Source: a virus. Taken from it: 29,802 nt of DNA. Below the pieces are notes generated by a model. That model was given only the letters and a program-made list of their open reading frames with translations. It did no database searches and was not told the origin of the DNA. A program made the position numbers and the translations under genes. Of the stretch, positions 3,266 to 19,922 are shown piece by piece. Numbering within the stretch: the first letter of the stretch is position 1; every line of letters begins with the position of its first letter. The stretch lies in the IMG/VR virus record IMGVR_UViG_3300045988_171260; one strand, 5' to 3'.

Positions 3266-3442
3266 TTGACAAGAGAAGAATTAAGTGCGGAATTGGGTAT
3301 AAGTGAGAATAGAATATTACGTCACTGGCGGGAAGTGTGTAATAGCTATGAGCGGATTGGGATTAAGTTGATTAAAAGAGGGAAGGGAAAAAACGCGGAG
3401 TATGGTATTTTAAAAAAAGACGAGACTATAGCAAGATTTTAG
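3266..3442 (+). CDS. Small HTH DNA-binding protein (~58 aa, TTG start)
   Basis: In-frame TTG at 3266 with AAGAGGA RBS 7 nt upstream and downstream of the promoter. Product LTREELSAELGISENRILRHWREV... has a helix-turn-helix pattern. No in-frame ATG after the promoter. Confidence 0.5.
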   Translation: MTREELSAELGISENRILRHWREVCNSYERIGIKLIKRGKGKNAEYGILKKDETIARF

Positions 3443-3946
3443 GTGTAGGTGAGGGTATTTATGGTAACGGTTGAAAATACAGATGGGACTATAGATGTGT
3501 ATGGTAATCTTGGTTGCGTAATCATATAAATATAGAGCGAAACAAAAGAGAAAGAATCGGGGAATTATGTAAATATTTTATTTCTGGAAAAATATGTGGC
3601 GGCAAGGAGAAAATTTTAATAAAAGATATTGATAATAACTATACTAGATGTCTTTCATATGAATCGGAATAAGAAGAGGAGTTTGTTGCGGATGAAGCTG
3701 GATATAAAGATCTTTGAAGTAAGAATTGCCGCATATAAAAAATAGAGGATTTTCTTTGGAGAGAATTTTAAGATAAGAGGATATTATGACGAGAAAAGTT
3801 TAACTGTTTTGTTGAAAGACGAAATTAAATGTCGAAATGTACACTTTTTCAACAAAATTGTTAAAAAAATATGTTTATATTAAAAGGACGAAATTTGTTA
3901 AGTTTCTTCCAAAAATTTTAAAGAAAAGTGAAAGGAGTTTAACAAA

Positions 3947-4561
3947 ATGGAAAATTTAACGAATATAATGTATTTATATCTATTGATTCATCAAGGACAT
4001 TTTGAAAAGGTGAATTATAGTAAGATATCTAAAGAGTTAGGTGTAACTAGACAAACACTATCAAAACAATATAATTCATTACTAGATAATGAAATGATAA
4101 TAAAAGATGATTTTGGTTTTATTAAAGTTAAAGAAGTTTTAGAATTTGATGAAGAAGATTTAGAAATTATTAAAAATAAAATAGTAGAATATCCTTCTTC
4201 TTATATTGGATATTTACTATTAAAAAGAAGATTATTATACGAAACAGATGCTTCTATTTGTAGTATACTAAAGATAAGTGAAAAATTTATTAAGAATTAT
4301 CAACAAAAAATTATTTTTGATAAGAATAATGGAGAAGAAGATGTAGTAAACTATATATATGCTATTGTTTTAAATAAAGAAATAAAGTACGTAGGTTCAA
4401 CAGAAGATTTAATAAACAGGATACAAATTCATTGCAATAAAAGAAAGTTTTTAGCAGAGAATAATTTTATTATTTTAGAAAAATGTTCGAGGAAGAATAG
4501 ATTTGATAGAGAATCTTTTTATAGAAAGTTATTTAATCCAGAATGGAATACAATTATTTAG
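3947..4561 (+). CDS. HTH (winged-helix) protein fused to a GIY-YIG nuclease-like domain (204 aa)
   Basis: GAAAGGAG RBS. N-terminal ISKELGVTRQTLSKQ HTH. C-terminal NYIYAIVLNKEIKYVGSTEDLINRIQIH matches the GIY-(10 aa)-YIG and conserved-Arg spacing of GIY-YIG domains. Confidence 0.7.
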   Translation: MENLTNIMYLYLLIHQGHFEKVNYSKISKELGVTRQTLSKQYNSLLDNEMIIKDDFGFIKVKEVLEFDEEDLEIIKNKIVEYPSSYIGYLLLKRRLLYETDASICSILKISEKFIKNYQQKIIFDKNNGEEDVVNYIYAIVLNKEIKYVGSTEDLINRIQIHCNKRKFLAENNFIILEKCSRKNRFDRESFYRKLFNPEWNTII

Positions 4562-4572
4562 AGGAAGGAAAA

Positions 4573-4932
4573 ATGGAAACTAGAGAAAATCAAAAGGTGG
4601 TTACAACTATGAAAGCTTTACATGACAGTAATAATTTATATTCTCCAGTTAATATTGAAGCAGCAAGTAAAGCAATGTCTTTGTTAAAACCTAATACTTT
4701 TAAAATTTGGTTTTATTTAGGAAAAAACCAAGATCAATATACTTTTGCATTATCTAAAATAGATGTTATGAAATTTTGTAATATATCGCGGTCTACTTAT
4801 TTATCTTCTATAAAGGAATTGATTGATACACATTATCTAGTTCCAGATAAAGATGGCTCTAATCATTATAATTTTTATGAATTTCCTCAAGAAGTAGAAG
4901 ATGATTTGATTATAACAATAAATAAAGGATAA
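4573..4932 (+). CDS. Hypothetical DNA-binding (winged-helix-like) protein, possibly replication-associated. Track start 4543.
   Basis: In-frame ATG at 4573 (METREN...) with GAGGAAGGA RBS. Segment KIWFYLGKNQDQYTFALSKIDVMKFCNISRSTYLSSIKEL resembles an initiator or replisome-organiser wHTH. Functional call is inference. Confidence 0.55.
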   Translation: METRENQKVVTTMKALHDSNNLYSPVNIEAASKAMSLLKPNTFKIWFYLGKNQDQYTFALSKIDVMKFCNISRSTYLSSIKELIDTHYLVPDKDGSNHYNFYEFPQEVEDDLIITINKG

Positions 4933-4942
4933 AATAAAGATA

Positions 4943-4982
4943 GGTATAATTTTAATACCCTTAAGGGTATTAAAATTATACC
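4943..4982. repeat. 40-bp perfect palindrome (ggtataattttaataccctt|aagggtattaaaattatacc). Candidate bidirectional terminator or cruciform.
   Basis: Read directly from the sequence. Lies 11 nt after the stop of 4573..4932, at the point where plus and minus transcription units converge. Confidence 0.8.
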
Positions 4983-4984
4983 TC

Positions 4985-5204
4985 AGTGGTATTAAAATTA
5001 TACCAGAAATAATACATATATTATATTATAAAAGAAGTAATTTCATTACTTCGTATTCAAGCACTTCGTGCTTTCATACTCGTAATGAAATTACTTCTTA
5101 GCCGCCGATAATTTTGTAAAATGTCGAAAAAGTGTAACACAATATAATATAATATAATAGTGGTATTAAAATTATACCAGAAATAATACATATATTATAT
5201 TATA
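4985..5204. repeat. ~46-bp direct repeat, two copies at ~4985-5030 and ~5159-5204. Each contains the hairpin tggtat-taaaat-tatacca followed by an (ATATT)n-like AT-repeat tail.
   Basis: agtggtattaaaattataccagaaataatacatatattatattata occurs twice. The second copy runs into atattatattatattatataataataat. Confidence 0.75.
5032..5099. repeat. 68-bp near-perfect palindrome with 18-bp perfect outer arms (aagaagtaatttcattac ... gtaatgaaattacttctt) and an inner agcacttcgtgct hairpin
   Basis: Read directly from the sequence. Outer arms are exact reverse complements. The centre contains a 5-bp stem with a TTC loop. Confidence 0.75.
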
Positions 5205-5227
5205 TTATATTATATAATAATAATATA

Positions 5228-5262
5228 GGTAATGTATCATACCTTCGGTATGATACATTACC
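5228..5262. repeat. Perfect 16-bp stem hairpin with a TTC(G) loop (ggtaatgtatcatacc-ttc-ggtatgatacattacc)
   Basis: Exact inverted repeat read from the sequence. The loop resembles a UUCG-type stable loop. Confidence 0.8.
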
Positions 5263-5340
5263 TTAGTGTAAATTAAAATGAAGAGTTTTATACGGGGTGG
5301 GGTATTTAGTAGTTGAATCCGCTCTGTTTTAGAGGGACTC

Positions 5341-6108
5341 TTGTTTAATTTTAAAATGTCAAGGAACGTTTTAAAAAATGATTTGAAAATTTTAAGGTTT
5401 AAGTAAATTAGGAAAGTTTTTCGGAAGGCATGAGAAAAAGTAAGAAAAGAAGTATGGTATATTTAGAGAATGGCAAAGAATATTACTGAATAATAACAAA
5501 GAGTTAGAGAGTTTTGTTAAAAACGAGTTATGGTTTTTTGGTTAGAAAAGTGTGGAAGAGGGTATTTAAATTATAAGAGAAGTATGGGAGTGCGGAGTTG
5601 AGTTTAATTAAAGTGCTTCCGCATTTAAAAAGCAAGGTTAAATAAAAATTGCGGGTTACAGAATTACTTAAATAAAATTATTAAAGTTTTGCGTGAGGAG
5701 TTTGATTTTGGAGAGAATTAAGGGTAGCTTTAATAAAATATAAAGATTGGATTAAAGGTGCGTAAGATTAAGATAATAAAATATTTTAGAATTAGAGGGA
5801 ATTGAGGATAGGTTAGCAAAAATAATAAGACTGAGCAAAGAGAATTTAATGTTTGGGTTAAGAGAAAGTATAAGTTAGATTAAGAGAGAAGAAGGTTGAA
5901 GTATATAAAACAATAAGCGGAAGTGAGGATTTTGAGATTGGGTTAAGAGAGGAGTGAGATTAGAGTGAGAGAGCGTAGAATTGGAGTGTAGAGAGGATGA
6001 GAGTGAGGCGTGAGTGGAGAAAGGATAGAGTGAGGCTGAAAAAATGCGAGAAAAAGGTGAAAAAAATTGTGAAAAAAATTGTGAGAGTGAAGTGCTCAGC
6101 CTCACTCT
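5341..6108 (+). other. ORF-free cytosine-depleted, G/A-rich tract (~4% C on the plus strand by hand count; about 43% G and <2% C over 5940-6000). It ends in a long-range inverted repeat with tandem 12-mers.
   Basis: Hand count of C per 60-nt line over 5341-6090 gives ~29 C in 750 nt. No ORF survives in any frame except low-complexity artefacts. Degenerate repeats include gggttaagaga x2 and gagtgag(g) several times. gtgaaaaaaatt occurs twice in tandem (6057-6080). Confidence 0.7.
6024..6108 (-). terminator. Candidate terminator for 6135..6530: 13-bp arms agagtgaggctga/tcagcctcactct around a T-run-rich loop
   Basis: On the minus-strand transcript the stem gagtga/tcactc is followed by acaatttttttcacaattttttt. 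Non-canonical long loop, hence modest confidence. Confidence 0.35.
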
Positions 6109-6134
6109 CCCTATCCTACCTACCTCAGAGCTCT

Positions 6135-6530
6135 TTATACAAGCCCAGAGAGGATTTTTCTAATAATTTCATCATCTGATAAAGCTTTTTCATTCTCCCG
6201 TTTTACATCTCTTTTTAAATCTGTATCTACTCTTTTAATTCCAAATGATCTTCCCCTTGGAATATCACCCATTTTACCAAAAGCTTCAATAGTCTTTTCC
6301 ATCTTAGTAAACTCTGTCATAAGATTTTTTCTATCCTCAGTAGACTCTTTTTTATCAATAGCTCCAAGAGCAATTCCATACGCTACAAACGCGTCAACCA
6401 ATTTGTTTCTCGCATCTACAATCGCCTTTGTGCGGGTTTCCTTAGTCTGCTCCGCCTCGATTTCAGCTCTTACCGCCTTAAGAATTTCATCTGTTGTTTT
6501 GCCTTCTGCGATCATTCTTTTAATATCCAT
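6135..6530 (-). CDS. Hypothetical protein (131 aa), charged and helical
   Basis: ORF track. GGAGAA RBS. Own promoter at ~6578-6606. No recognisable motif. Confidence 0.65.
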   Translation of the reverse strand: MDIKRMIAEGKTTDEILKAVRAEIEAEQTKETRTKAIVDARNKLVDAFVAYGIALGAIDKKESTEDRKNLMTEFTKMEKTIEAFGKMGDIPRGRSFGIKRVDTDLKRDVKRENEKALSDDEIIRKILSGLV

Positions 6531-6577
6531 AGTATGTTCTCCTTTTGAAATGTTTATTTGTTTTTCTTTATGTATAT

Positions 6578-6606
6578 ATTATATCAAAAAATTATAGAAA
6601 ATTCAA
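6578..6606 (-). promoter_or_regulatory. Sigma-A-type promoter (TTGAAT-17-TGaTATAAT) for 6135..6530
   Basis: Reverse complement reads ttgaat tttctataattttttga tataat; extended -10 TG present. Confidence 0.5.
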
Positions 6607-6853
6607 AGGGGAAGACATCTTTCTAGCTATTGTTGGGCTTAATTAATTTCCAAAAATTTTAAATGAGATAAGGCTCGACGTAAAAATGGAAGGCGGAAAA
6701 TAAAAATGGCTTTTTTTACTATTGTATCATATATTTTGTTAAAAATCAAGCGGAGGGAGGTGAGGTATGCCATAATTGCGGGATTCTAGAGTAGTGATTC
6801 AAAATTCCAAACATCTAGCGAAAAAGCCCATATAGGCGATCTTTGTGGTAGGT

Positions 6854-6913
6854 CGGATCCGAGTCCTTTGAACTCGGACCGCTGATTATATCACAGCCGC
6901 CGCATTTTGTCAA
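6854..6913 (-). promoter_or_regulatory. Consensus promoter (TTGACA-17-TATAAT at 6885-6913) whose transcript begins with a GC-rich hairpin (6854-6881)
   Basis: Reverse complement reads ttgaca aaatgcggcggctgtga tataat cagc, then stem cggtccgagt/actcggatccg. Same promoter-plus-5'-hairpin architecture as at 10667-10695, 10850-10878 and 14239-14267. Confidence 0.55.
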
Positions 6914-7195
6914 TAGGCAAATTATATAAATTTTTCATTATTTTTTTAGTAATATTGCACAAAAAGTCATTTTTACCAAAAATTTCATTAAAAATAGGAT
7001 TTTTTTTGGTAAAAATGACTAAAATAAATAAAAATGTACAAAAAAATAGCCAAAAACCGCGTAATTTTTGGCTATTTTATATAGAATATAGAATTTTATT
7101 GAATTTTTATAAGAAATTTTAGTTATTTTGTATAGAATAGTCAGAAATGTAAATTTTCTGACTATTCTACGTAATTTTTAGTTACCTTGAACTGC

Positions 7196-7591
7196 TTACT
7201 CCTCTACAGCTTCCTCTTCCTCTTTTGCAAGAGAGAAATAAGGAACTCTTTTTTCAACTGTTCTAACTACCTCTCCAGATTCGATAAGCTGTTTAAGAAG
7301 AGCCGATAATTTCTGAGAAGAAAGTTTACTCATTTCAGAGTTTTCCTTAATCATGGTTGAAACTGTAACAGGTTTATCAAATAACTCCAAAGCTACAAGA
7401 ATAAGTTTTTTGACTTCCTCATTTTCTTTCTGGTTTTTGGTTTTTTTACCGCTGGAAGATTTTTTATTCAACAGCTCGATTTCATGTCTGAGAAAGTTAA
7501 GTGCTTCTTCTTTTGGTTCAAAGCTACTTTCTTCCAGAAAAGCACTGATAGTTTCAAACCAATCTTTTTTTGTCATTTTGTCTTTCATCAT
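7196..7591 (-). CDS. Hypothetical protein (~131 aa) with C-terminal winged-helix-like segment. Track start 7597.
   Basis: ORF track. Conserved leader gaggtaATGaatATG. C-terminal VTVSTMIKENSEMSKLSSQKLSALLKQLIESGEVVRTV resembles a wHTH. 13-bp perfect inverted repeat gaatagtcagaaa/tttctgactattc downstream at ~7147-7179. Confidence 0.65.
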   Translation of the reverse strand: MMKDKMTKKDWFETISAFLEESSFEPKEEALNFLRHEIELLNKKSSSGKKTKNQKENEEVKKLILVALELFDKPVTVSTMIKENSEMSKLSSQKLSALLKQLIESGEVVRTVEKRVPYFSLAKEEEEAVEE

Positions 7592-7624
7592 ATTCATTAC
7601 CTCTTTCTTTCTTTTGATATATTT

Positions 7625-7653
7625 ATTATAGCATACTTTTTTGTTTTTGTCAA
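7625..7653 (-). promoter_or_regulatory. Consensus promoter TTGACA-17-TATAAT for 7196..7591, part of a duplicated ~70-bp promoter-leader module
   Basis: Reverse complement reads ttgaca aaaacaaaaaagtatgc tataat aaatatatcaaaagaaagaaagaggtaatg. An identical module recurs at 7880-7947. Confidence 0.65.
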
Positions 7654-7684
7654 TTACTTTTTTTATTTTTTTCTTTTCTGGTGC

Positions 7685-7873
7685 TTATCTAATGTAAGCA
7701 CCAGCAATAGACTTAACAGAGCCATCAGCATTGAAAAAGATAACATTATTCTGGATAACGTTGATACCTTTATTCTTTGCAAAATTTCTGAACACAAAGT
7801 CTGTATTCCAGAGTTTGATAAAATCAGCTTTTCTCATGCTTGCAAAACCTTTTGTGTAATTCATTGTTCTCAT
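7685..7873 (-). CDS. Hypothetical small protein (~62 aa). Track start 7879 (TTG).
   Basis: ORF track. Preceded by an exact copy of the 7604-7670 promoter-leader module. ATG at 7873 has proper GAGG spacing. Confidence 0.55.
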   Translation of the reverse strand: MRTMNYTKGFASMRKADFIKLWNTDFVFRNFAKNKGINVIQNNVIFFNADGSVKSIAGAYIR

Positions 7874-7906
7874 AGACAATACCTCTTTCTTTCTTTTGAT
7901 ATATTT

Positions 7907-7935
7907 ATTATAGCATACTTTTTTGTTTTTGTCAA
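7907..7935 (-). promoter_or_regulatory. Consensus promoter TTGACA-17-TATAAT, second copy of the duplicated module
   Basis: Same sequence as 7625-7653. Confidence 0.65.
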
Positions 7936-7951
7936 TTACTTTTTTTATTTT

Positions 7952-8155
7952 TTAATTTTTTCCAAGATACTCTTCAAGATGCTCGTTTAAGAAATTTATA
8001 GTTTCATCCAACCCGTGAATCTCACAAAAGTTTTTAAAAGCTTTTTCAAGTTCTTTTGCTCTTGTATCTTTTATAACTTTTACGCAAGTGCCATACTCTT
8101 CTTTTGTAATAACAAAAGGAACGCATCCATCTTCTTTCAACGTAAAACTTCTCAT
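7952..8155 (-). CDS. Hypothetical small protein (67 aa)
   Basis: ORF track. RBS aaagggg. A 10-bp stem hairpin (8175-8203) lies immediately upstream of the RBS. Confidence 0.55.
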   Translation of the reverse strand: MRSFTLKEDGCVPFVITKEEYGTCVKVIKDTRAKELEKAFKNFCEIHGLDETINFLNEHLEEYLGKN

Positions 8156-8598: not shown

Positions 8599-8671
8599 GT
8601 TACATCACATCCTTTTTAAAATTTACTATTAACTTGTTACAATGGTATTATATCGCACCTTAGTTTAAAAG

Positions 8672-9382
8672 TCAAGCATTTTCGTGTAATTCTTTTCTTT
8701 TTTTCTGCGGTAGTCTCCAACATGACGGCTTAATACTTCTATCCATTTTTTTATGCTGGTCAAAACATTTTTTCATAATTTCAATTTCAATTTTTACATC
8801 TTCTAAACCTGTATGAGATTCTACAAAATCAATATTCTTTTTAATATATTTATAGCATACCTCAGCGTTAGTTAAAAGATTGCCTTTTTCAGACTCAAAT
8901 CCGTTTTTCTCAGCAAATTTGATATAGGTGTTTGTACTTAAAATCATCTGGCAAGCCATATTCCAAATACAAAAATATTCTGTGCCATAAGGGAAAAACC
9001 AGCGAATAAAACTTTTGCTATGGTATCTAATAGCATTGTTTAATGCTTTTCTATCAAAATTCATATTGTAAGCACCAACTTTTTTCACATTATATTCTTT
9101 CATGTCTGCAAACATCTGTTTTCTAATATTGAAGATGCTTTTCATGGTTCTTTTTCCGCTTTTTAAATCATCCCAATATTTTGGGATTTTTTTAGCGTAG
9201 TAGGCACTATTCATAGCTTCTTTCAAGTCAATAAATGTCTCAGCGACTACAAAGCTTCTTTCGGTGACAATGTTACCGTGTCTATCTGCAATAGCATAAC
9301 CAATATCATAAGGGATTGGCTCATTTACACTATTCGCAGTTTCTGTATCCAATACCATGAAAAACTCTTTTCTTCTACTCAT
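8672..9382 (-). CDS. DEDDh (DnaQ-like) 3'-5' exonuclease (~236 aa). Track start 9397 is a TTG.
   Basis: Exo I VLDTETA. Exo II YNMNFDRKAL. Exo III HTGLEDVKIE. ATG at 9382 with GAGGAAA RBS 6 nt upstream. Confidence 0.8.
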   Translation of the reverse strand: MSRRKEFFMVLDTETANSVNEPIPYDIGYAIADRHGNIVTERSFVVAETFIDLKEAMNSAYYAKKIPKYWDDLKSGKRTMKSIFNIRKQMFADMKEYNVKKVGAYNMNFDRKALNNAIRYHSKSFIRWFFPYGTEYFCIWNMACQMILSTNTYIKFAEKNGFESEKGNLLTNAEVCYKYIKKNIDFVESHTGLEDVKIEIEIMKKCFDQHKKMDRSIKPSCWRLPQKKRKELHENA

Positions 9383-9480
9383 TTTTGATTTCCTCAACTT
9401 TCATTTATTTTTTTTACTATTAACTTGTTACAATGGTATTATATCGCACCTTAGCTTAAAAGTCAAGCATTTTCGTTTAT

Positions 9481-9656
9481 TTTTTAAAATCTTTTAACTG
9501 CTGGTTTGTAGACAACTCTTTAATTTTATATTTATGTAATCTGTTGTTTAAACAATAAATGCATGAACCATGGTTTCTGCACTGCATTGATATTGCTTTT
9601 GCTTTGCGGTATTCTTTTCTATGCTCTTTACCACTTTTAATTGCTTTGTCCATCAT
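9481..9656 (-). CDS. Small Cys-containing protein (~58 aa), below the 60-aa ORF-track threshold
   Basis: Hand translation MMDKAIKSGKEHRKEYRKAKAISMQCRNHGSCIYCLNNRLHKYKIKELSTNQQLKDFKK. AGGTGG RBS 6 nt upstream. 18 nt after the stop of 9674..10147, in the same operon. Confidence 0.45.
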
Positions 9657-10705: not shown

Positions 10706-10740
<35 letters not shown>

Positions 10741-11270: not shown

Positions 11271-11450
11271 TTAATTATTATTAAGTCCATGAAACTTTTT
11301 ATTTTCTCGTTTCATTATTGTTTCATAAGCAATCTCTACTATTTCTTTTGAAATATTTTGATTTTCTGCTATTTTACAGAACATAATCACTGTATCATTT
11401 TCAAACCCTTTTACTTTAATTACATTATCCATCATCTCTGTTCTTGTCAT
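11271..11450 (-). CDS. Hypothetical small protein (~59 aa). Track start 11471.
   Basis: Promoter TTGACA-17-TATAAT at 11483-11511 places the TSS ~5 nt from the 11471 ATG. Internal ATG at 11450 has AAAGAGAGGAAAG RBS. Confidence 0.5.
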   Translation of the reverse strand: MTRTEMMDNVIKVKGFENDTVIMFCKIAENQNISKEIVEIAYETIMKRENKKFHGLNNN

Positions 11451-11530
11451 TATTGCTTTCCTCTCTTTCATTTGATAATGTTATTATACACTACTTTTGA
11501 AAATCTGTCAAGACTTTTTTATTTTTTTTC

Positions 11531-12204: not shown

Positions 12205-12306
12205 TTACAATCCCATTTTAGCGGACAGTGATAACAAAGTTGTAGTAAAAGCTGTGGTTTCCATCGGAATTGCAAGAAATATCTTTTTAAGTTTTTTAGT
12301 TATCAT
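12205..12306 (-). CDS. Tiny hydrophobic peptide (33 aa), sub-threshold ORF
   Basis: Hand translation MITKKLKKIFLAIPMETTAFTTTLLSLSAKMGL. GAAAGGAG RBS 9 nt upstream. Promoter TTGACA-17-TATTAT at 12340-12368. Confidence 0.35.
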   Translation of the reverse strand: MITKKLKKIFLAIPMETTAFTTTLLSLSAKMGL

Positions 12307-12385
12307 ATTATTTTTTTCTCCTTTCTTTTAACTATCTTTATAATACCATATTAAAATTATTTTGTCAATCCCCTTTTATAAAAAA

Positions 12386-12425
12386 TTATAAAAAAGGAAG
12401 ATTTTTTATCTTCCTTTTACTTTTG
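12386..12425. terminator. Bidirectional factor-independent terminator (stem aaggaagat/atcttcctt, A-run before, T-run after)
   Basis: Read from the sequence at 12394-12416 with flanking homopolymer runs. Confidence 0.55.
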
Positions 12426-12608: not shown

Positions 12609-12728
12609 TTAAGAAATTTTTACCAGATAACCGTTTGTATTTTTTTCTACTGAAAAAATGTATTGATTATCTTTTAAGTATTTTTTTACAGTTTCAAATG
12701 CTTTTCGAGTTGTCAGTAACATTGTCAT
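12609..12728 (-). CDS. Small protein (39 aa), sub-threshold ORF
   Basis: Hand translation MTMLLTTRKAFETVKKYLKDNQYIFSVEKNTNGYLVKIS. AGAGAGG RBS. Promoter TTGACA-17-TATCAT at 12761-12789. Confidence 0.4.
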   Translation of the reverse strand: MTMLLTTRKAFETVKKYLKDNQYIFSVEKNTNGYLVKIS

Positions 12729-13223
12729 ATCCCTTTACCTCTCTTTCATTTGATAATACTATGATACTATATTTCTTTGCTTTTGTCAAGCATTTTAGGA
12801 AAATTTTCTAAAGATTTTTTTATGCGGATTTCCGCTGGAAAAACCTGAACTTAAGGAGATTATAGGCGAACCGACTCCAGAACTATCAAGTTCGGGAGTC
12901 CCTTTTTTATTTAAGGAATGATTCTAAAGCCTTGTAGCATAAATCAGCGTTTTCTTTATCTTTTATGCTAGTACCTTTAGAAAAGTCATTCATAGCGGCT
13001 GTCAGTAGTTCTGGTACTGAAATAAATTCAAATCCAACTGTAAAGCCGCCAATTCATTAAGATTGACTTTTTTCATCGGTTCTTTCTTATCTCCTTTTTA
13101 AATATTTTATTTTCTTTACATTATTATTATATCAAATTTTTTAATAAAAATCAAAAAAGATACTTTATCTAAACAAGCAAAGAAAAGGGCTGAACTTATT
13201 CCGCCCTTTTCCCACACTTTCCG

Positions 13224-14267: not shown

Positions 14268-14529
14268 TAGACATTTTACACAATTTTTTCTTTTGATTTT
14301 CGTGCAGATTGCCCATTGACATTTCTTGTCTATTGACATTTTGTACAAAAATCAAATTATATTTTTGTATACTTTTACCATTGACAGGACTTGTCAATAG
14401 ACATAATGCACAAAATTTTCCTTGCATTTTTGTGCAATTTTACCTATTGACAAACTCATTTTAGGAAAATATCTTTGTGCATTTTTTACAAAAATTTAGC
14501 CAAAAATTTGTGCATTTTGTCTATTGACA
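14262..14529. repeat. Four copies of the 12-mer TGTCAATAGACA in alternating orientation (14262, 14327 rc, 14392, 14518 rc), interleaved with TTTGTGCA(A/T)TTT and (t/c)attgaca motifs
   Basis: Exact 12-mers read from the sequence. Each carries TGTC-N4-GACA dyad symmetry and a TTGACA hexamer on one strand. Confidence 0.75.
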
Positions 14530-16983: not shown

Positions 16984-18183
16984 ATGAATTATACTTGCAA
17001 CAAATGCGGAAAATCAATGGATGAAATAAATTTTTATACATATAAAAATGGTAAAAAAACAGAATTATGTAAAAAATGTTTAACTATGCATATAAATAAT
17101 TTTGAACCTAATACTTTCCTATGGGCATTAGAAAAGATGGATGTTCCATATGTTCCAGAAGAATGGAATATTTTAAGGGATAAAGCCTATGCAAAAGATC
17201 CTTATAAAATGAATGGGATGTCAGTATTTGGAAAATATCTTTCTAAAATGCGGCTAAAACAGTGGAAAAATTATAGTTGGGCAGATACAGAAAAGATTGC
17301 TCAAGAAAAAGAAAAAAAGACTCAAGAGGATCTCGAACAACAGAAAAAATTTGAAGAGAGTATGAAGCAACAGCTTGAAAAAGGGGAAATTTCTGAAGCT
17401 GAATACAAAACAATGGTTTCTACCCCTACTCAGAACGCGGAATTGGCGGTAAAAGCTCCTAAGAACGAGATTGGAACTGACAATTTTTATGATGAAAATA
17501 ATTTTATAAGCGAGGATGAATTAATTGATCCCGCCGCGGAATTAACTCAAGAAGATAAGATTTACTTAGCTATGAAATGGGGACGTTTATACAAACCAAA
17601 TGAGTGGGTTGAATTAGAGAAAAAATATGAAGAGATGACTAGTTCTTTTGATATTCAAGATTCAGATACTACAGGAACTTTAATTCTTATTTGTAAAACC
17701 TATTTAAAGATGAATCAGGCGATCGATTGCGGTGACATGGATGGATACCAGAAATTATCCAGAGTATACGATTCATTGCGTAAATCCGCAAAATTTACAG
17801 CCGCACAAAATAAAGAAGTAAAAAGTGATTTTGTAGACTGTATTGGAGAGATGGTTGCCTATTGTGAAAAAAATGGCGGTCAGATTCCAAGAATGAAGAT
17901 AGAGGCTCCAAATGATATAGTAGATAAGGTTATCATGGATTTAAAAGAGTATACGAGATCATTGATTTATGATGATAAATCCCTTGCTCAACAGATAGAA
18001 AATTATATTAAGCAGAGAGAAAATGCGGATGCGATGAAGAAAGATAGAGAAGAAGCTAAAGAAAAAGGCTATAATCAAATAGAATTAAAAGATAGAGATT
18101 ATCAAACTTATTTTGATAATATTGCAAAAGAAAAAGAAAATGATGAAAAAATTTATATAGGAGAGGATGAAGATTTTATATGA
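16984..18183 (+). CDS. Hypothetical protein (399 aa) with N-terminal zinc ribbon; possible DNA-recognition/terminase small-subunit role by position only
   Basis: CNKCGK...CKKC at the N-terminus. Stop overlaps the TerL start (ATGA). No recognisable TerS motif, so the TerS call is positional inference. Confidence 0.7.
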   Translation: MNYTCNKCGKSMDEINFYTYKNGKKTELCKKCLTMHINNFEPNTFLWALEKMDVPYVPEEWNILRDKAYAKDPYKMNGMSVFGKYLSKMRLKQWKNYSWADTEKIAQEKEKKTQEDLEQQKKFEESMKQQLEKGEISEAEYKTMVSTPTQNAELAVKAPKNEIGTDNFYDENNFISEDELIDPAAELTQEDKIYLAMKWGRLYKPNEWVELEKKYEEMTSSFDIQDSDTTGTLILICKTYLKMNQAIDCGDMDGYQKLSRVYDSLRKSAKFTAAQNKEVKSDFVDCIGEMVAYCEKNGGQIPRMKIEAPNDIVDKVIMDLKEYTRSLIYDDKSLAQQIENYIKQRENADAMKKDREEAKEKGYNQIELKDRDYQTYFDNIAKEKENDEKIYIGEDEDFI

Positions 18184-19922
18184 GTTTAAAAGGTTTATTA
18201 GATTTATCTGAATCTAGAACTCTTAAGAAGCAGGGTATGTCAGAAGAAAGACTGAAAGCTCAACTTCCTCATTTAAGAAAACTAATCGCTTATTATAGAG
18301 AATATCCAGATCTTTTGGTAGACTTTATGAAAGGTCCTGAGAGTACTTTTAAATTCTTTTTTTACCAGAGAATATTCTTAAGAATTACAATGCGGCATAG
18401 ATATGTGTATGCCACTTTTCCACGTGCGTATAGTAAATCATTCTTATCTATGATGATTCTTATGTTAAGATGTATTCTCTATCCTAACTCACATTTATTT
18501 GTTACTACTGGCGGGAAAGAACAAGCTGCTAGTATTACCATAGCAAAGATTGAAGAAATATGTAAGCTCATTCCCGCCCTTAATAATGAATTAGATTGGT
18601 CAAGAGGAGCTTCTAAGAAATCAAAAGACGATGTTAATTATATCTTTAAAAATGATTCTTCTATTAATATATTAGCTGCGAAACAATCTTCTAGAGGCCA
18701 GCGTAGGACAGGTGGTTTAATGGAAGAATGTGTTCTTATAGACGGAGATATATTAAATGAAATAATAATTCCTACGACAAATGTTGATAGATTATTACCA
18801 GATGGAACTAGACATAAAGAAGAAATAATTAATAAAAGTCAAATATATATTACAACAGCTGGGTGGAAGAATTCATTTGCATATGATAAACTGATGGAGC
18901 TTTTGGTTCAGTCAATGATTGAACCTGATAAAGTTATGATTATGGGTGGAACCTATGAAACGCCTGTTGCAGAAGGTCTTTTGGATGAAGATTTTGTAGA
19001 GCAACTCAAATTACAAGGCACATTTAAAGAAGATTCTTTTGATAGGGAATATCGTTCTAAATGGAGCGGAGATGCAGAAAATGCATTTTATTCTTCTGAA
19101 AAGTTTGATAGGTATAGAGTGTTATCCCAACCAGAATACGAATATAGCGGAAGAAGTAGTAAATCAGCTTATTATGTTATAGGGGTGGACGTCGGACGTA
19201 TAGGCTGTACAACTGAAGCTTGTATATTCAAAGTTACCCCTCAACCGCAAGGAGCAGCTTTAAAGAGTTTGGTTAATATCTATACTTATGAAGCAGAGCA
19301 TTTTGAAACTCAGGCAATCAATTTAAAGAAATTATATTATAAGTACAAAGCTAAAATTATTTCGATTGATGCAAATGGCTTGGGTATTGGACTCATCGAC
19401 TTCATGACAAGGGCACAGATTGACCCTGAAACAGGGGATACCCTTCCGCCGTTTGGAGTTGAAGGAGGAACATCAGAAGATGCTATTGCTCCTTATAGAA
19501 AAATTAAGGGCGGAGATGTGGAAGATAATGCTTTATATTTAATTAAAGCAAATGCACCAATTAATACTGAAGCTTATTCATATACTCAGACTCAAATGTC
19601 TAGCGGAAAAATTAAATTTTTGAAAGATGAGTCTGAAGCTAAAGCTAAGCTAATGTCATCAAAAGTTGGTCAGAATATGGATGCAGATAAAAGAAATGAA
19701 TATTTAAAACCTTTTGTTTTAACAACGATTTTAAGAGAACAAATGCTAAATCTAGTTGAAGAAAATGAAGGAGTTAATATTATTTTAAAACAATCTTCAA
19801 GAGGTATAAAAAAGGATAAGTTTTCTGCTTTTATATATGGACTGTACTATATAAAACAGGAAGAAGACCATAAGAAAAAGAGACGAAGTAGAAATATATC
19901 AGATTTTATGTTCTTTAGCTAA
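18180..19922 (+). CDS. terL: Terminase large subunit (580 aa)
   Basis: Deviant Walker A FPRAYSKSF. Acidic ATPase motifs. C-terminal RNase H-like nuclease start YYVIGVDVGRIG. Position upstream of the portal gene. Confidence 0.88.
   Translation: MSLKGLLDLSESRTLKKQGMSEERLKAQLPHLRKLIAYYREYPDLLVDFMKGPESTFKFFFYQRIFLRITMRHRYVYATFPRAYSKSFLSMMILMLRCILYPNSHLFVTTGGKEQAASITIAKIEEICKLIPALNNELDWSRGASKKSKDDVNYIFKNDSSINILAAKQSSRGQRRTGGLMEECVLIDGDILNEIIIPTTNVDRLLPDGTRHKEEIINKSQIYITTAGWKNSFAYDKLMELLVQSMIEPDKVMIMGGTYETPVAEGLLDEDFVEQLKLQGTFKEDSFDREYRSKWSGDAENAFYSSEKFDRYRVLSQPEYEYSGRSSKSAYYVIGVDVGRIGCTTEACIFKVTPQPQGAALKSLVNIYTYEAEHFETQAINLKKLYYKYKAKIISIDANGLGIGLIDFMTRAQIDPETGDTLPPFGVEGGTSEDAIAPYRKIKGGDVEDNALYLIKANAPINTEAYSYTQTQMSSGKIKFLKDESEAKAKLMSSKVGQNMDADKRNEYLKPFVLTTILREQMLNLVEENEGVNIILKQSSRGIKKDKFSAFIYGLYYIKQEEDHKKKRRSRNISDFMFFS

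Follow-up and report, generated by a model that had tools for sequence, protein, structure and literature searches.

A cytosine-depleted, purine-rich non-coding tract at a convergent junction of a gut phage, and its possible role as a composition-encoded directional filter for Rho

Two kinds of Rho-related sequence are among the closest described systems for the locus reported here. Rho-dependent terminators carry rut sites, for example tR1 of phage lambda. In Bacillus subtilis, Rho terminates fragments with stretches longer than 150 nt that are T-rich and hold more C than G (PMC13323073). A purine bias of the sense strand shields untranslated nascent RNA from Rho in B. subtilis and in other bacteria with 'runaway' transcription, and it primes antisense RNA for Rho, which has been described as a barrier for phages (PMC13323073). 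The bias as published is mild (about 54% purine), genome-wide and located in coding genes (Dierksheide, Taggart, Johnson and Li, Nat Microbiol 2026, PMC13323073). Here, a C-depleted, purine-rich, non-coding tract is described from IMG/VR virus record IMGVR_UViG_3300045988_171260. The window, i.e. the whole stretch of DNA analysed, is 29,802 nt long, and the tract, whose natural limits are positions 5264-6090 (827 nt) on the plus strand, is tentatively interpreted as a directional filter for Rho that is encoded in base composition. It resembles the published bias in its excess of G over C, its lower T content, its purine-rich sense and pyrimidine-rich antisense strands and its low-GC, Firmicute-type setting with exposed nascent RNA, but differs in that it is a discrete 0.83-kb block, 67% purine with 4% C, of non-coding phage DNA located where convergent units meet. 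Read leftward, it resembles a rut site in specifying a long, C-rich, G-poor and weakly structured untranslated RNA past the end of a gene; however, it is approximately ten times longer and lies behind an already competent intrinsic terminator. The principle that would best account for the tract is known, recent and described for coding genes, and no known family of RNA or DNA elements fits.

Exact counting gave 36 C in the 827 nt of the tract (4.4%), together with 27.1% G, 39.8% A and 28.8% T, compared to window means of 13.9% C, 15.9% G and 34.6% T and to 11.1% C in the other intergenic DNA of the window. The depletion is significant relative to both the window mean (binomial P = 1e-19) and the other intergenic DNA (P = 3e-12), and thus goes beyond ordinary intergenic background, as had been proposed in an original prediction made by a model from the sequence alone. 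That prediction had estimated by hand about 4% C over 5341-6090 (exactly 3.9%, 29/750) and, over 5940-6000, about 43% G and less than 2% C (exactly 44.3% and 1.6%); all of its counts were reproduced, and between the limits that it had drawn, 5281-6108, C is 5.2% and G 27.1%. Among 800-nt windows on either strand, the six lowest in C all lie on the tract (minimum 4.75%; lowest elsewhere 6.75%), and its GC skew is +0.72 to +0.76; no other composition in the window is as extreme. The sense strands of the 26 reliable genes have GC skews of +0.06 to +0.38 and 50-64% purine, with at least 55% in 22 of them; a doubtful open reading frame (ORF) at 145-516 has a skew of -0.27. The plus strand of the tract therefore carries the same signature as the genes of the phage in exaggerated form (66.9% purine, skew +0.72). 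Both purines are raised and both pyrimidines lowered. Deamination of single-stranded DNA would instead raise G and T, and therefore does not fit as the source of this composition. The plus-strand excess of G over C and of purines spans all 827 nt, compared to the more than 150 nt expected of a Rho-evading transcript, and the minus strand (27.1% C, 4.4% G, 39.8% T) has the composition of a rut region, being long and weakly structured.

The extreme composition is shared by close relatives, which are human-gut metagenome contigs of approximately 117-138 kb. The tract was found in 11 other distinct human-gut phage contigs, and its C content in each copy is 3.7-4.4%; the comparisons below use these and the window (12 sequences), and L-numbers denote loci of relatives. 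Variable sites increase along the tract, from 9% in 5264-5420 through 17% in 5421-5700 to 27-30% in 5701-6020, where unit insertions and deletions also occur; for comparison, 44-53% of third-codon positions are variable in two neighbouring genes. Pairwise divergence is 6.9% for the tract (5.1% in its 5' part and 9.5% in its 3' part), 16.5% for third-codon positions and 5.9% for another intergenic region. There are 23 invariant cytosines, mostly at 5293-5692. Exchanges of A and G account for 118 of all 183 variable sites and exchanges of C and T for 22; within 5264-6020, the former account for 106 of 150. This excess (P = 5.5e-8) was rejected as evidence of selection, since any compositional equilibrium predicts the same ratio. 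The 3' third changes by A-to-G exchange and unit insertion or deletion and never gains C, which suggests that selection there is on composition and not on sequence. Comparative analyses thus indicate that the 5' third is constrained as sequence and the 3' third mainly as composition.

More distant relatives, reached through a conserved AAA ATPase (53-60% identical), have no nucleotide homology to the tract (nhmmer, profile of the 12 tracts). Nevertheless, the last 400-600 nt of their rightward unit before the point of convergence contain 1-5% C and 20-31% G, except that the final 200 nt of L028 are AT-only with 5% G. In L026 and L027, the C-poor zone consists of small protein-coding genes followed by a C-free 3' untranslated region of about 125 nt; in locus coordinates, the sense strands of L026 5790-6400 and L027 6726-7250 have 4-5% C and up to 31% G. 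As C is depleted at the same point without shared sequence, the depletion is a property of the junction and not of a particular sequence. The tract family itself is limited to one narrow clade: no homologues were found in annotated phages (blastn), and a comparable tract is absent both from Enterococcus phage H1 and from the initial 50 kb of Phass-1.

No coding explanation was found for the strand asymmetry, in agreement with the original prediction. Two standard-code ORFs touch the 3' end of the tract: 5997-6179 on the plus strand, which is intact in none of the 11 relatives, and 5875-6105 on the minus strand, which is frameshifted in 5 of the 11. No credible plus-strand frame appears under any single reassignment of a stop codon (TGA, TAG or TAA), frames that treat TAA as sense on the G-poor strand result solely from its lack of G, and substitutions among the relatives are without 3-nt periodicity. 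A 19-aa ORF at 5430-5489 was also rejected; it is intact in 10 of 11 relatives, but has poor Shine-Dalgarno spacing and 4 synonymous versus 5 non-synonymous changes, and two of the 'synonymous' changes are better read as one compensating base pair.

Folding analyses give the plus-strand RNA no notable structure (5264-5700, z = -1.5; 5264-6020, z = -2.0, at -121 kcal/mol for 757 nt). Longer fragments reach a z of about -4 on both strands owing to the terminator palindromes, and the minus-strand fold, -98 kcal/mol over 902 nt, is mostly terminator hairpin. In the consensus fold of the 12 sequences, 2 of 123 pairs change on both sides; the many switches between A-U and G-U are trivially compatible in a sequence of G, A and U. 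The one covarying internal pair, among these two, is 5462/5480, which is U-A, U-G or C-G among the relatives, and its U-G intermediates would fit a plus-strand RNA. Rfam searches gave nothing at gathering score in the whole window and, at E <= 10 across 4900-6200, nothing beyond chance matches of the flanking hairpins to miRNA and snoRNA families.

The setting of the tract is as originally described: plus-strand genes end at 4932, a minus-strand gene (6530 to 6135) faces them, and the tract lies where the two transcription units converge. Rightward is probably the more likely direction in which it is transcribed, since a leftward terminator lies at its right end, the promoter-like site P1 and an operator-like palindrome are aimed inward, and ATG is depleted (11 versus 25.7 expected from mononucleotide shuffles). 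For the interpretation as a Rho filter, we infer that the tract is transcribed, which promoter is used and that Rho is the selective agent. Rightward transcription, probably from P1 (5124-5153) through the hairpin at 5227-5263, would yield an RNA of about 0.9 kb with 4% C, on which Rho could not load even though no ribosome covers it. Leftward-moving polymerases that escape the terminator (6109 to 6083) would, in contrast, make RNA with 27% C, 4% G and 40% U. Such RNA would be an ideal substrate for Rho, and read-through would be aborted before it reached the regulatory region and the rightward genes. With the rightward RNA spared and the leftward RNA trapped, the junction would act as a directional filter set by composition. 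The selected feature of the untranslated tract would be its base composition more than its sequence, and because an RNA that is never translated is free of both codon constraints and ribosome cover, its C content could fall near zero. If correct, the tract exemplifies the recently described Rho-imposed purine code in a natural, extreme and sharply delimited form in non-coding phage DNA, and phages can make direction-selective transcription insulators, or Rho-immune non-coding transcripts, by composition alone. The tract would also offer a compact 0.83-kb object for defining the specificity of Rho outside B. subtilis.

Several observations weigh against this interpretation, which is the favoured one but is advanced tentatively, as a substantial possibility. 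With its roughly 830 nt, the tract greatly exceeds what Rho requires for entry. P1 was identified by its match to the consensus, in a scan for promoters that was as a whole at chance (12 found, 11.4 expected); the evidence for P1 comes from conservation and not from scan statistics, as it is kept in L001, L006, L008, L012 and L015 and is duplicated in L006, L008 and L012, but L005 lacks it at this position. A convincing intrinsic terminator for the rightward direction was not found, the hairpin at 6125-6155 being imperfect in the window and without a proper T run. The presence of rho in the host is an assumption, the one hint being that relatives were binned with metagenome-assembled genomes (MAGs) of Erysipelotrichaceae and Bacilli. 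Additionally, other intergenic DNA of the clade is equally conserved, and the small number of C-to-T polymorphisms shows an equilibrium composition and is by itself no proof of selection. Finally, conservation of the 5' third at the sequence level is not explained by composition alone. The near-invariance of this third implies an additional, sequence-specific function, for example as a regulatory site or the 5' domain of an RNA.

Overall, the non-coding, strand-asymmetric element at a convergence point that the original prediction described was borne out as real and is conserved, and the functions that the prediction proposed were not supported as stated. One alternative retains Rho evasion and changes its purpose: P1 and its operator would form a regulated promoter that fires a C-free 'runway' RNA of about 0.9 kb, unstoppable by Rho, with the complement acting as a Rho trap. 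The work would then be done by transcription itself or by a lasting RNA:DNA hybrid at the G-rich 3' end, and possible effects are silencing of the convergent early gene through collision or antisense and the opening or priming of a nearby origin. This version is unlikely. A related alternative, also unlikely, is that the tract encodes an R-loop-forming primer or activator transcript of a replication origin, in which transcription would proceed from P1 across the AT-rich run into the G-rich tract and leave a stable RNA:DNA hybrid that would open or prime the origin. Origins of this type are known from ColE1 (RNA II), phage T4 (oriF and oriG) and pAMbeta1; in them, as at this locus with its promoter-like site, the promoter precedes an AT-rich segment, and the non-template strand is rich in G. 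An origin nearby is possible, as the features upstream of the tract are origin-like (four 17-mer palindromes, the (TATAA)n run and strong hairpins). G clusters (GGGGTGGGG) are also present at 5294-5302, at the 5' start of the tract, and the gene just upstream in relatives L006 and L008 encodes a tandem winged-helix protein with a weak match to 'replication initiation protein' (E = 0.006). However, relatives retain one 17-mer only, and the initiator assignment of the protein is weak, a ScpB-like (phrog, E = 7e-8) or generic HTH protein being the better match. The hybrid-minus-duplex energy, calculated with a checked table (rGG/dCC = -2.9, rUU/dAA = -0.2), is -2.6 kcal per 100 nt for the tract overall, compared to a window mean of +6.0 +/- 6.5 and a gene mean of +0.7, and 5800-6090 is the most hybrid-favouring stretch of the window (-9.1 to -11.4). 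The first two thirds, at +0.8 to +1.2, are no more hybrid-favouring than ordinary genes, and most of the tract thus differs from known R-loop origins. Its G content is also modest, reaching 44% only in 5940-6000; a threshold of about 40% G is used for R-loop elongation zones, and the 27% of the whole tract lies below it. The same compositional zone is, moreover, coding in distant relatives. Nor was the iteron or initiator array that had been suggested found in the tract, which has no repeat family beyond local 3' duplications and no iteron periodicity; DnaA boxes (TTATCCACA, at most 1 mismatch) occur at chance, with 11 in the window versus 8.0 expected and none in the tract.

Alternatively, the tract could specify a long non-coding RNA that acts in trans by binding and titrating either the ribosome (30S) or a protein (CsrA, Hfq, or a defence or host factor), in which case C depletion would keep the RNA single-stranded. 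Such a role is decidedly unlikely, although sequence constraint is present and is strongest in the 5' third, 23 cytosines are invariant, an RNA of G, A and U pairs only through A-U and G-U and folds weakly, and there are several decent Shine-Dalgarno-like sites, such as GAGGAG at 5696. The tract was initially described as GGA- and GAGG-dense, and was proposed on that basis to titrate CsrA or 30S subunits. Shuffling shows that this density is what the composition gives: GGA occurs 19 times versus 21.4 +/- 2.9 in dinucleotide and 23.9 +/- 3.8 in mononucleotide shuffles, GAGG occurs 10 times versus 7.1 expected, and none of GGA, AGGA, GGAG and GAGG is in excess over mono- or dinucleotide shuffles of the tract. 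The strong Shine-Dalgarno cores GGAGG, AAGGAG and AGGAGG are all absent (1.6, 1.3 and 0.7 expected). CsrB, RsmY and RsmZ are likewise non-coding and have many GGA motifs, as the tract does in absolute number, but in the tract these are not enriched, the minimum-free-energy fold places only 2 of 19 in hairpin loops, a repeated stem-loop unit is lacking, and even at E <= 10 none of the Rfam sponge families matches. STAB-SD elements are 5' stabilisers of Bacillus mRNAs. The tract is similar to them as an untranslated RNA with Shine-Dalgarno-like purine motifs and a strong 5'-proximal hairpin (5227-5263), and differs in its lack of strong cores and in a motif count that its composition predicts. 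Furthermore, the tract has only chance-level complementarity to the rest of the window, which gives no antisense targets there, the 3' half evolves almost freely and with insertions and deletions, and the family is confined to one narrow clade. Caution is warranted with motif-rich purine tracts, which can resemble CsrA or ribosome sponges when motif density reflects composition alone. The opposite proposal, a CU-rich leftward transcript that mimics an anti-Shine-Dalgarno sequence, is disfavoured because such a transcript is unlikely to accumulate behind a conserved terminator that lies just before the tract, and with 27% C and 4% G it would be a preferred substrate of Rho. That the tract has no function of its own is improbable. 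In that account, the tract is a decayed remnant of small purine-rich genes that inherited its composition from coding ancestors, and indeed the syntenic stretch is coding in L026 and L027 (4-5% C, 20-31% G), and 5353-5389 matches the ribosome-binding site and start codon of a 109-aa gene in L028, yet reads ATG ATT TGA in the window. The tract may thus have arisen from small purine-rich genes. However, when the tract was compared as a possible pseudogene with the small genes of L026, L027 and L028, only this 37-nt motif emerged, with no protein-level or extended DNA similarity (local alignment z of 1.3-1.5 for L026 and L027; tblastn hits at chance level). The tract also diverges 0.4-0.6 times as fast as third-codon positions, none of the 12 sequences shows an upward drift of C, and phage genomes usually shed useless DNA. 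Very improbable, finally, is an element that acts as DNA, whether through non-B structure (triplex or G-quadruplex), as a protein-binding array, or as a packaging or genome-end sequence. The strand asymmetry is strong, there is a weak A/T periodicity near 10-12 nt, and several assemblies break beside the tract. Against this, the longest purine run is 14 nt and neither strand has a G-quadruplex motif, so that the non-B DNA originally suggested is not supported; autocorrelation peaks are weak (z <= 3.6); the contig breaks fall at the tandem repeats and in the (TATAA)n run, whereas the junction is crossed without a break in other assemblies, of 117-138 kb; and the terminase gene is 12 kb away.

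The features of the junction are collected in Table 1. The repeats named in the original prediction and its 13-bp inverted repeat (6027-6039 / 6096-6108) are all present: GGGTTAAGAGA occurs twice, at 5855 and 5940, GTGAAAAAAATT is in tandem at 6057 and 6069, and GAGTGAG is found 4 times in the tract versus 0.2 expected, an excess that reflects local duplication.

Table 1. Positions of the tract, its segments and the flanking elements in the window (+, plus strand; -, minus strand;., no strand assigned)
Feature	Position	Strand	Remarks
C-depleted, purine-rich non-coding tract	5264..6090	+	Exact counts: 4.4% C, 27.1% G, 66.9% purine
Near-invariant 5' segment of the tract	5264..5420	+	Holds G clusters 5294-5302 and the majority of invariant cytosines; 97.7% mean pairwise identity
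Motif AAAATGTCAAGGAACGTTTTAAAAAATGATTTGAAAA, only piece with a distant counterpart (L028)	5353..5389	+	Local alignment z = 3.6, level with the top score among 60 shuffles
Degenerate purine-repeat 3' part (GGGTTAAGAGA, GAGTGAG)	5701..6090	+	Variable sites, insertions and deletions; C stays excluded
12-nt tandem repeat, GTGAAAAAAATT-like	6039..6084	+	Roughly 2 to 5 copies, depending on the relative
Composite hairpin, 18-bp outer stem around AAGCAC-TTCG-GTGCTT	5032..5099	.	100% complementary; 97.6% identical in L005
Promoter-like site P1, TCGAAA-18-TATAAT, aimed into the tract	5124..5153	+	Consensus 10/12
(TATAA)n AT-only low-complexity run	5141..5227	.	End point of many metagenome contigs
Operator-like palindrome GGTATTAAAATTATACC, directly downstream of P1	5162..5178	.	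Kept in relatives
Perfect 17-bp hairpin/palindrome, left bound of the tract	5227..5263	.	Terminator-like on the minus strand
Intrinsic terminator of the leftward gene, stem and T run	6083..6109	-	Abuts the right end of the tract
C-rich pyrimidine block CAGCCTCACTCTCCCTATCCTACCTACCTC, length variable, abrupt switch	6096..6130	+	First 13 nt pair with 6027-6039
Convergent 131-aa gene	6135..6530	-	Shine-Dalgarno AAGGAG; sense strand 64.4% purine

On the left flank, the hairpin that bounds the tract is the best-supported structure of the region: compensatory double changes affect 7 of its 17 pairs, pairing extends to 100% of cells, and none of 500 shuffles matches it. Its loop (5244-5246) is TTC in the window, L001, L006, L008 and L015 and exactly complementary, GAA, in L002, L004, L005 and L012, and the centre of the palindrome looks as if it had been inverted. 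The palindrome GGTAT-N7-ATACC has four copies, all within 4943-5178 and nowhere else in the window (0.38 expected). Three of these 17-mers, at 4943-5004, travel with the upstream gene cassette of the window. This cassette (3947-4932) is swapped between lineages; in the window it encodes a 204-aa winged-HTH-GIY-YIG fusion and a 129-aa HTH_36 protein, and in L006 and L008 (L008 9589-10230) the single tandem winged-helix protein, of 205-213 aa. A box, AAAATGT(C/A), recurs by or in consensus promoters, at 3827, 5119, 5354 and 10791 on the plus strand and at 14275, 14324, 14341 and 10534 on the minus strand; three copies are upstream of a promoter near 14275, P1 contains another, and a further copy lies within the invariant 5' part. 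The box may be a binding site for a regulator. The contigs of L001-L004, L013, L014, L016 and L017 end either in the (TATAA)n run or in the 12-nt tandem repeat.

On the right flank, the tandem GTGAAAAAAATT repeats, read as their reverse complement, form the T run of the leftward terminator. At the same place, L004 and L005 carry another hairpin with a T run, and thus the function of the terminator is conserved. The convergent 131-aa gene has its own promoter, TTGAAT-17-TATAAT (6606 to 6578). Beyond it, 6531-7195 is a second long gene-free region, with 20% variable sites and a pairwise divergence of 5.9% among relatives, and is thus conserved to the same degree as the tract; it contains a GC-rich hairpin (about 6851-6884) and a GGAGG-ATG that opens a 2-codon frame, and has no Rfam match at gathering score. 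The leftward early region also carries repeated cassettes of 73-90 nt: 7588-7677, 7870-7959 and 12303-12392; 8622-8694 and 9413-9485; and 11444-11518 and 12722-12796. On the minus strand, the 7588-7677 cassette comprises TTGACA-17-TATAAT, a Shine-Dalgarno sequence and ATG, and its family looks like duplicated promoter and ribosome-binding-site modules. The repeated cassettes probably explain the frequent breaks of metagenome contigs near 7600-7700. An unbroken run of 29 A is present at 10706-10734.

The phage is tailed and low in GC (30%), uses the standard genetic code, and encodes a large terminase (18180-19922), a sigma-like protein, an AAA ATPase, a SprT-like protein and an HTH-GIY-YIG endonuclease. 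The window contains neither tRNA nor tmRNA genes. Its promoters are of the sigma-A consensus type and strong Shine-Dalgarno sequences precede its genes, and these sequence features point to a Firmicute host. The nearest annotated phages, with terminases approximately 44% identical, are Enterococcus phages H1 and EF1, Geobacillus E3 and Phass-1. Contigs L022-L025, whose terminases are 70-76% identical, are binned in MAGs named 'uncultured Erysipelotrichaceae bacterium' or 'uncultured Bacilli bacterium' from rumen and rabbit gut, a weak hint as to the host. The rightward unit starts with a small HTH protein (TREELSAELGISENRILRHW...) at 3266-3442, followed by a small Cys-rich protein at 3514-3672; both are kept in L008 and L026 and are probably regulators of the rightward module.

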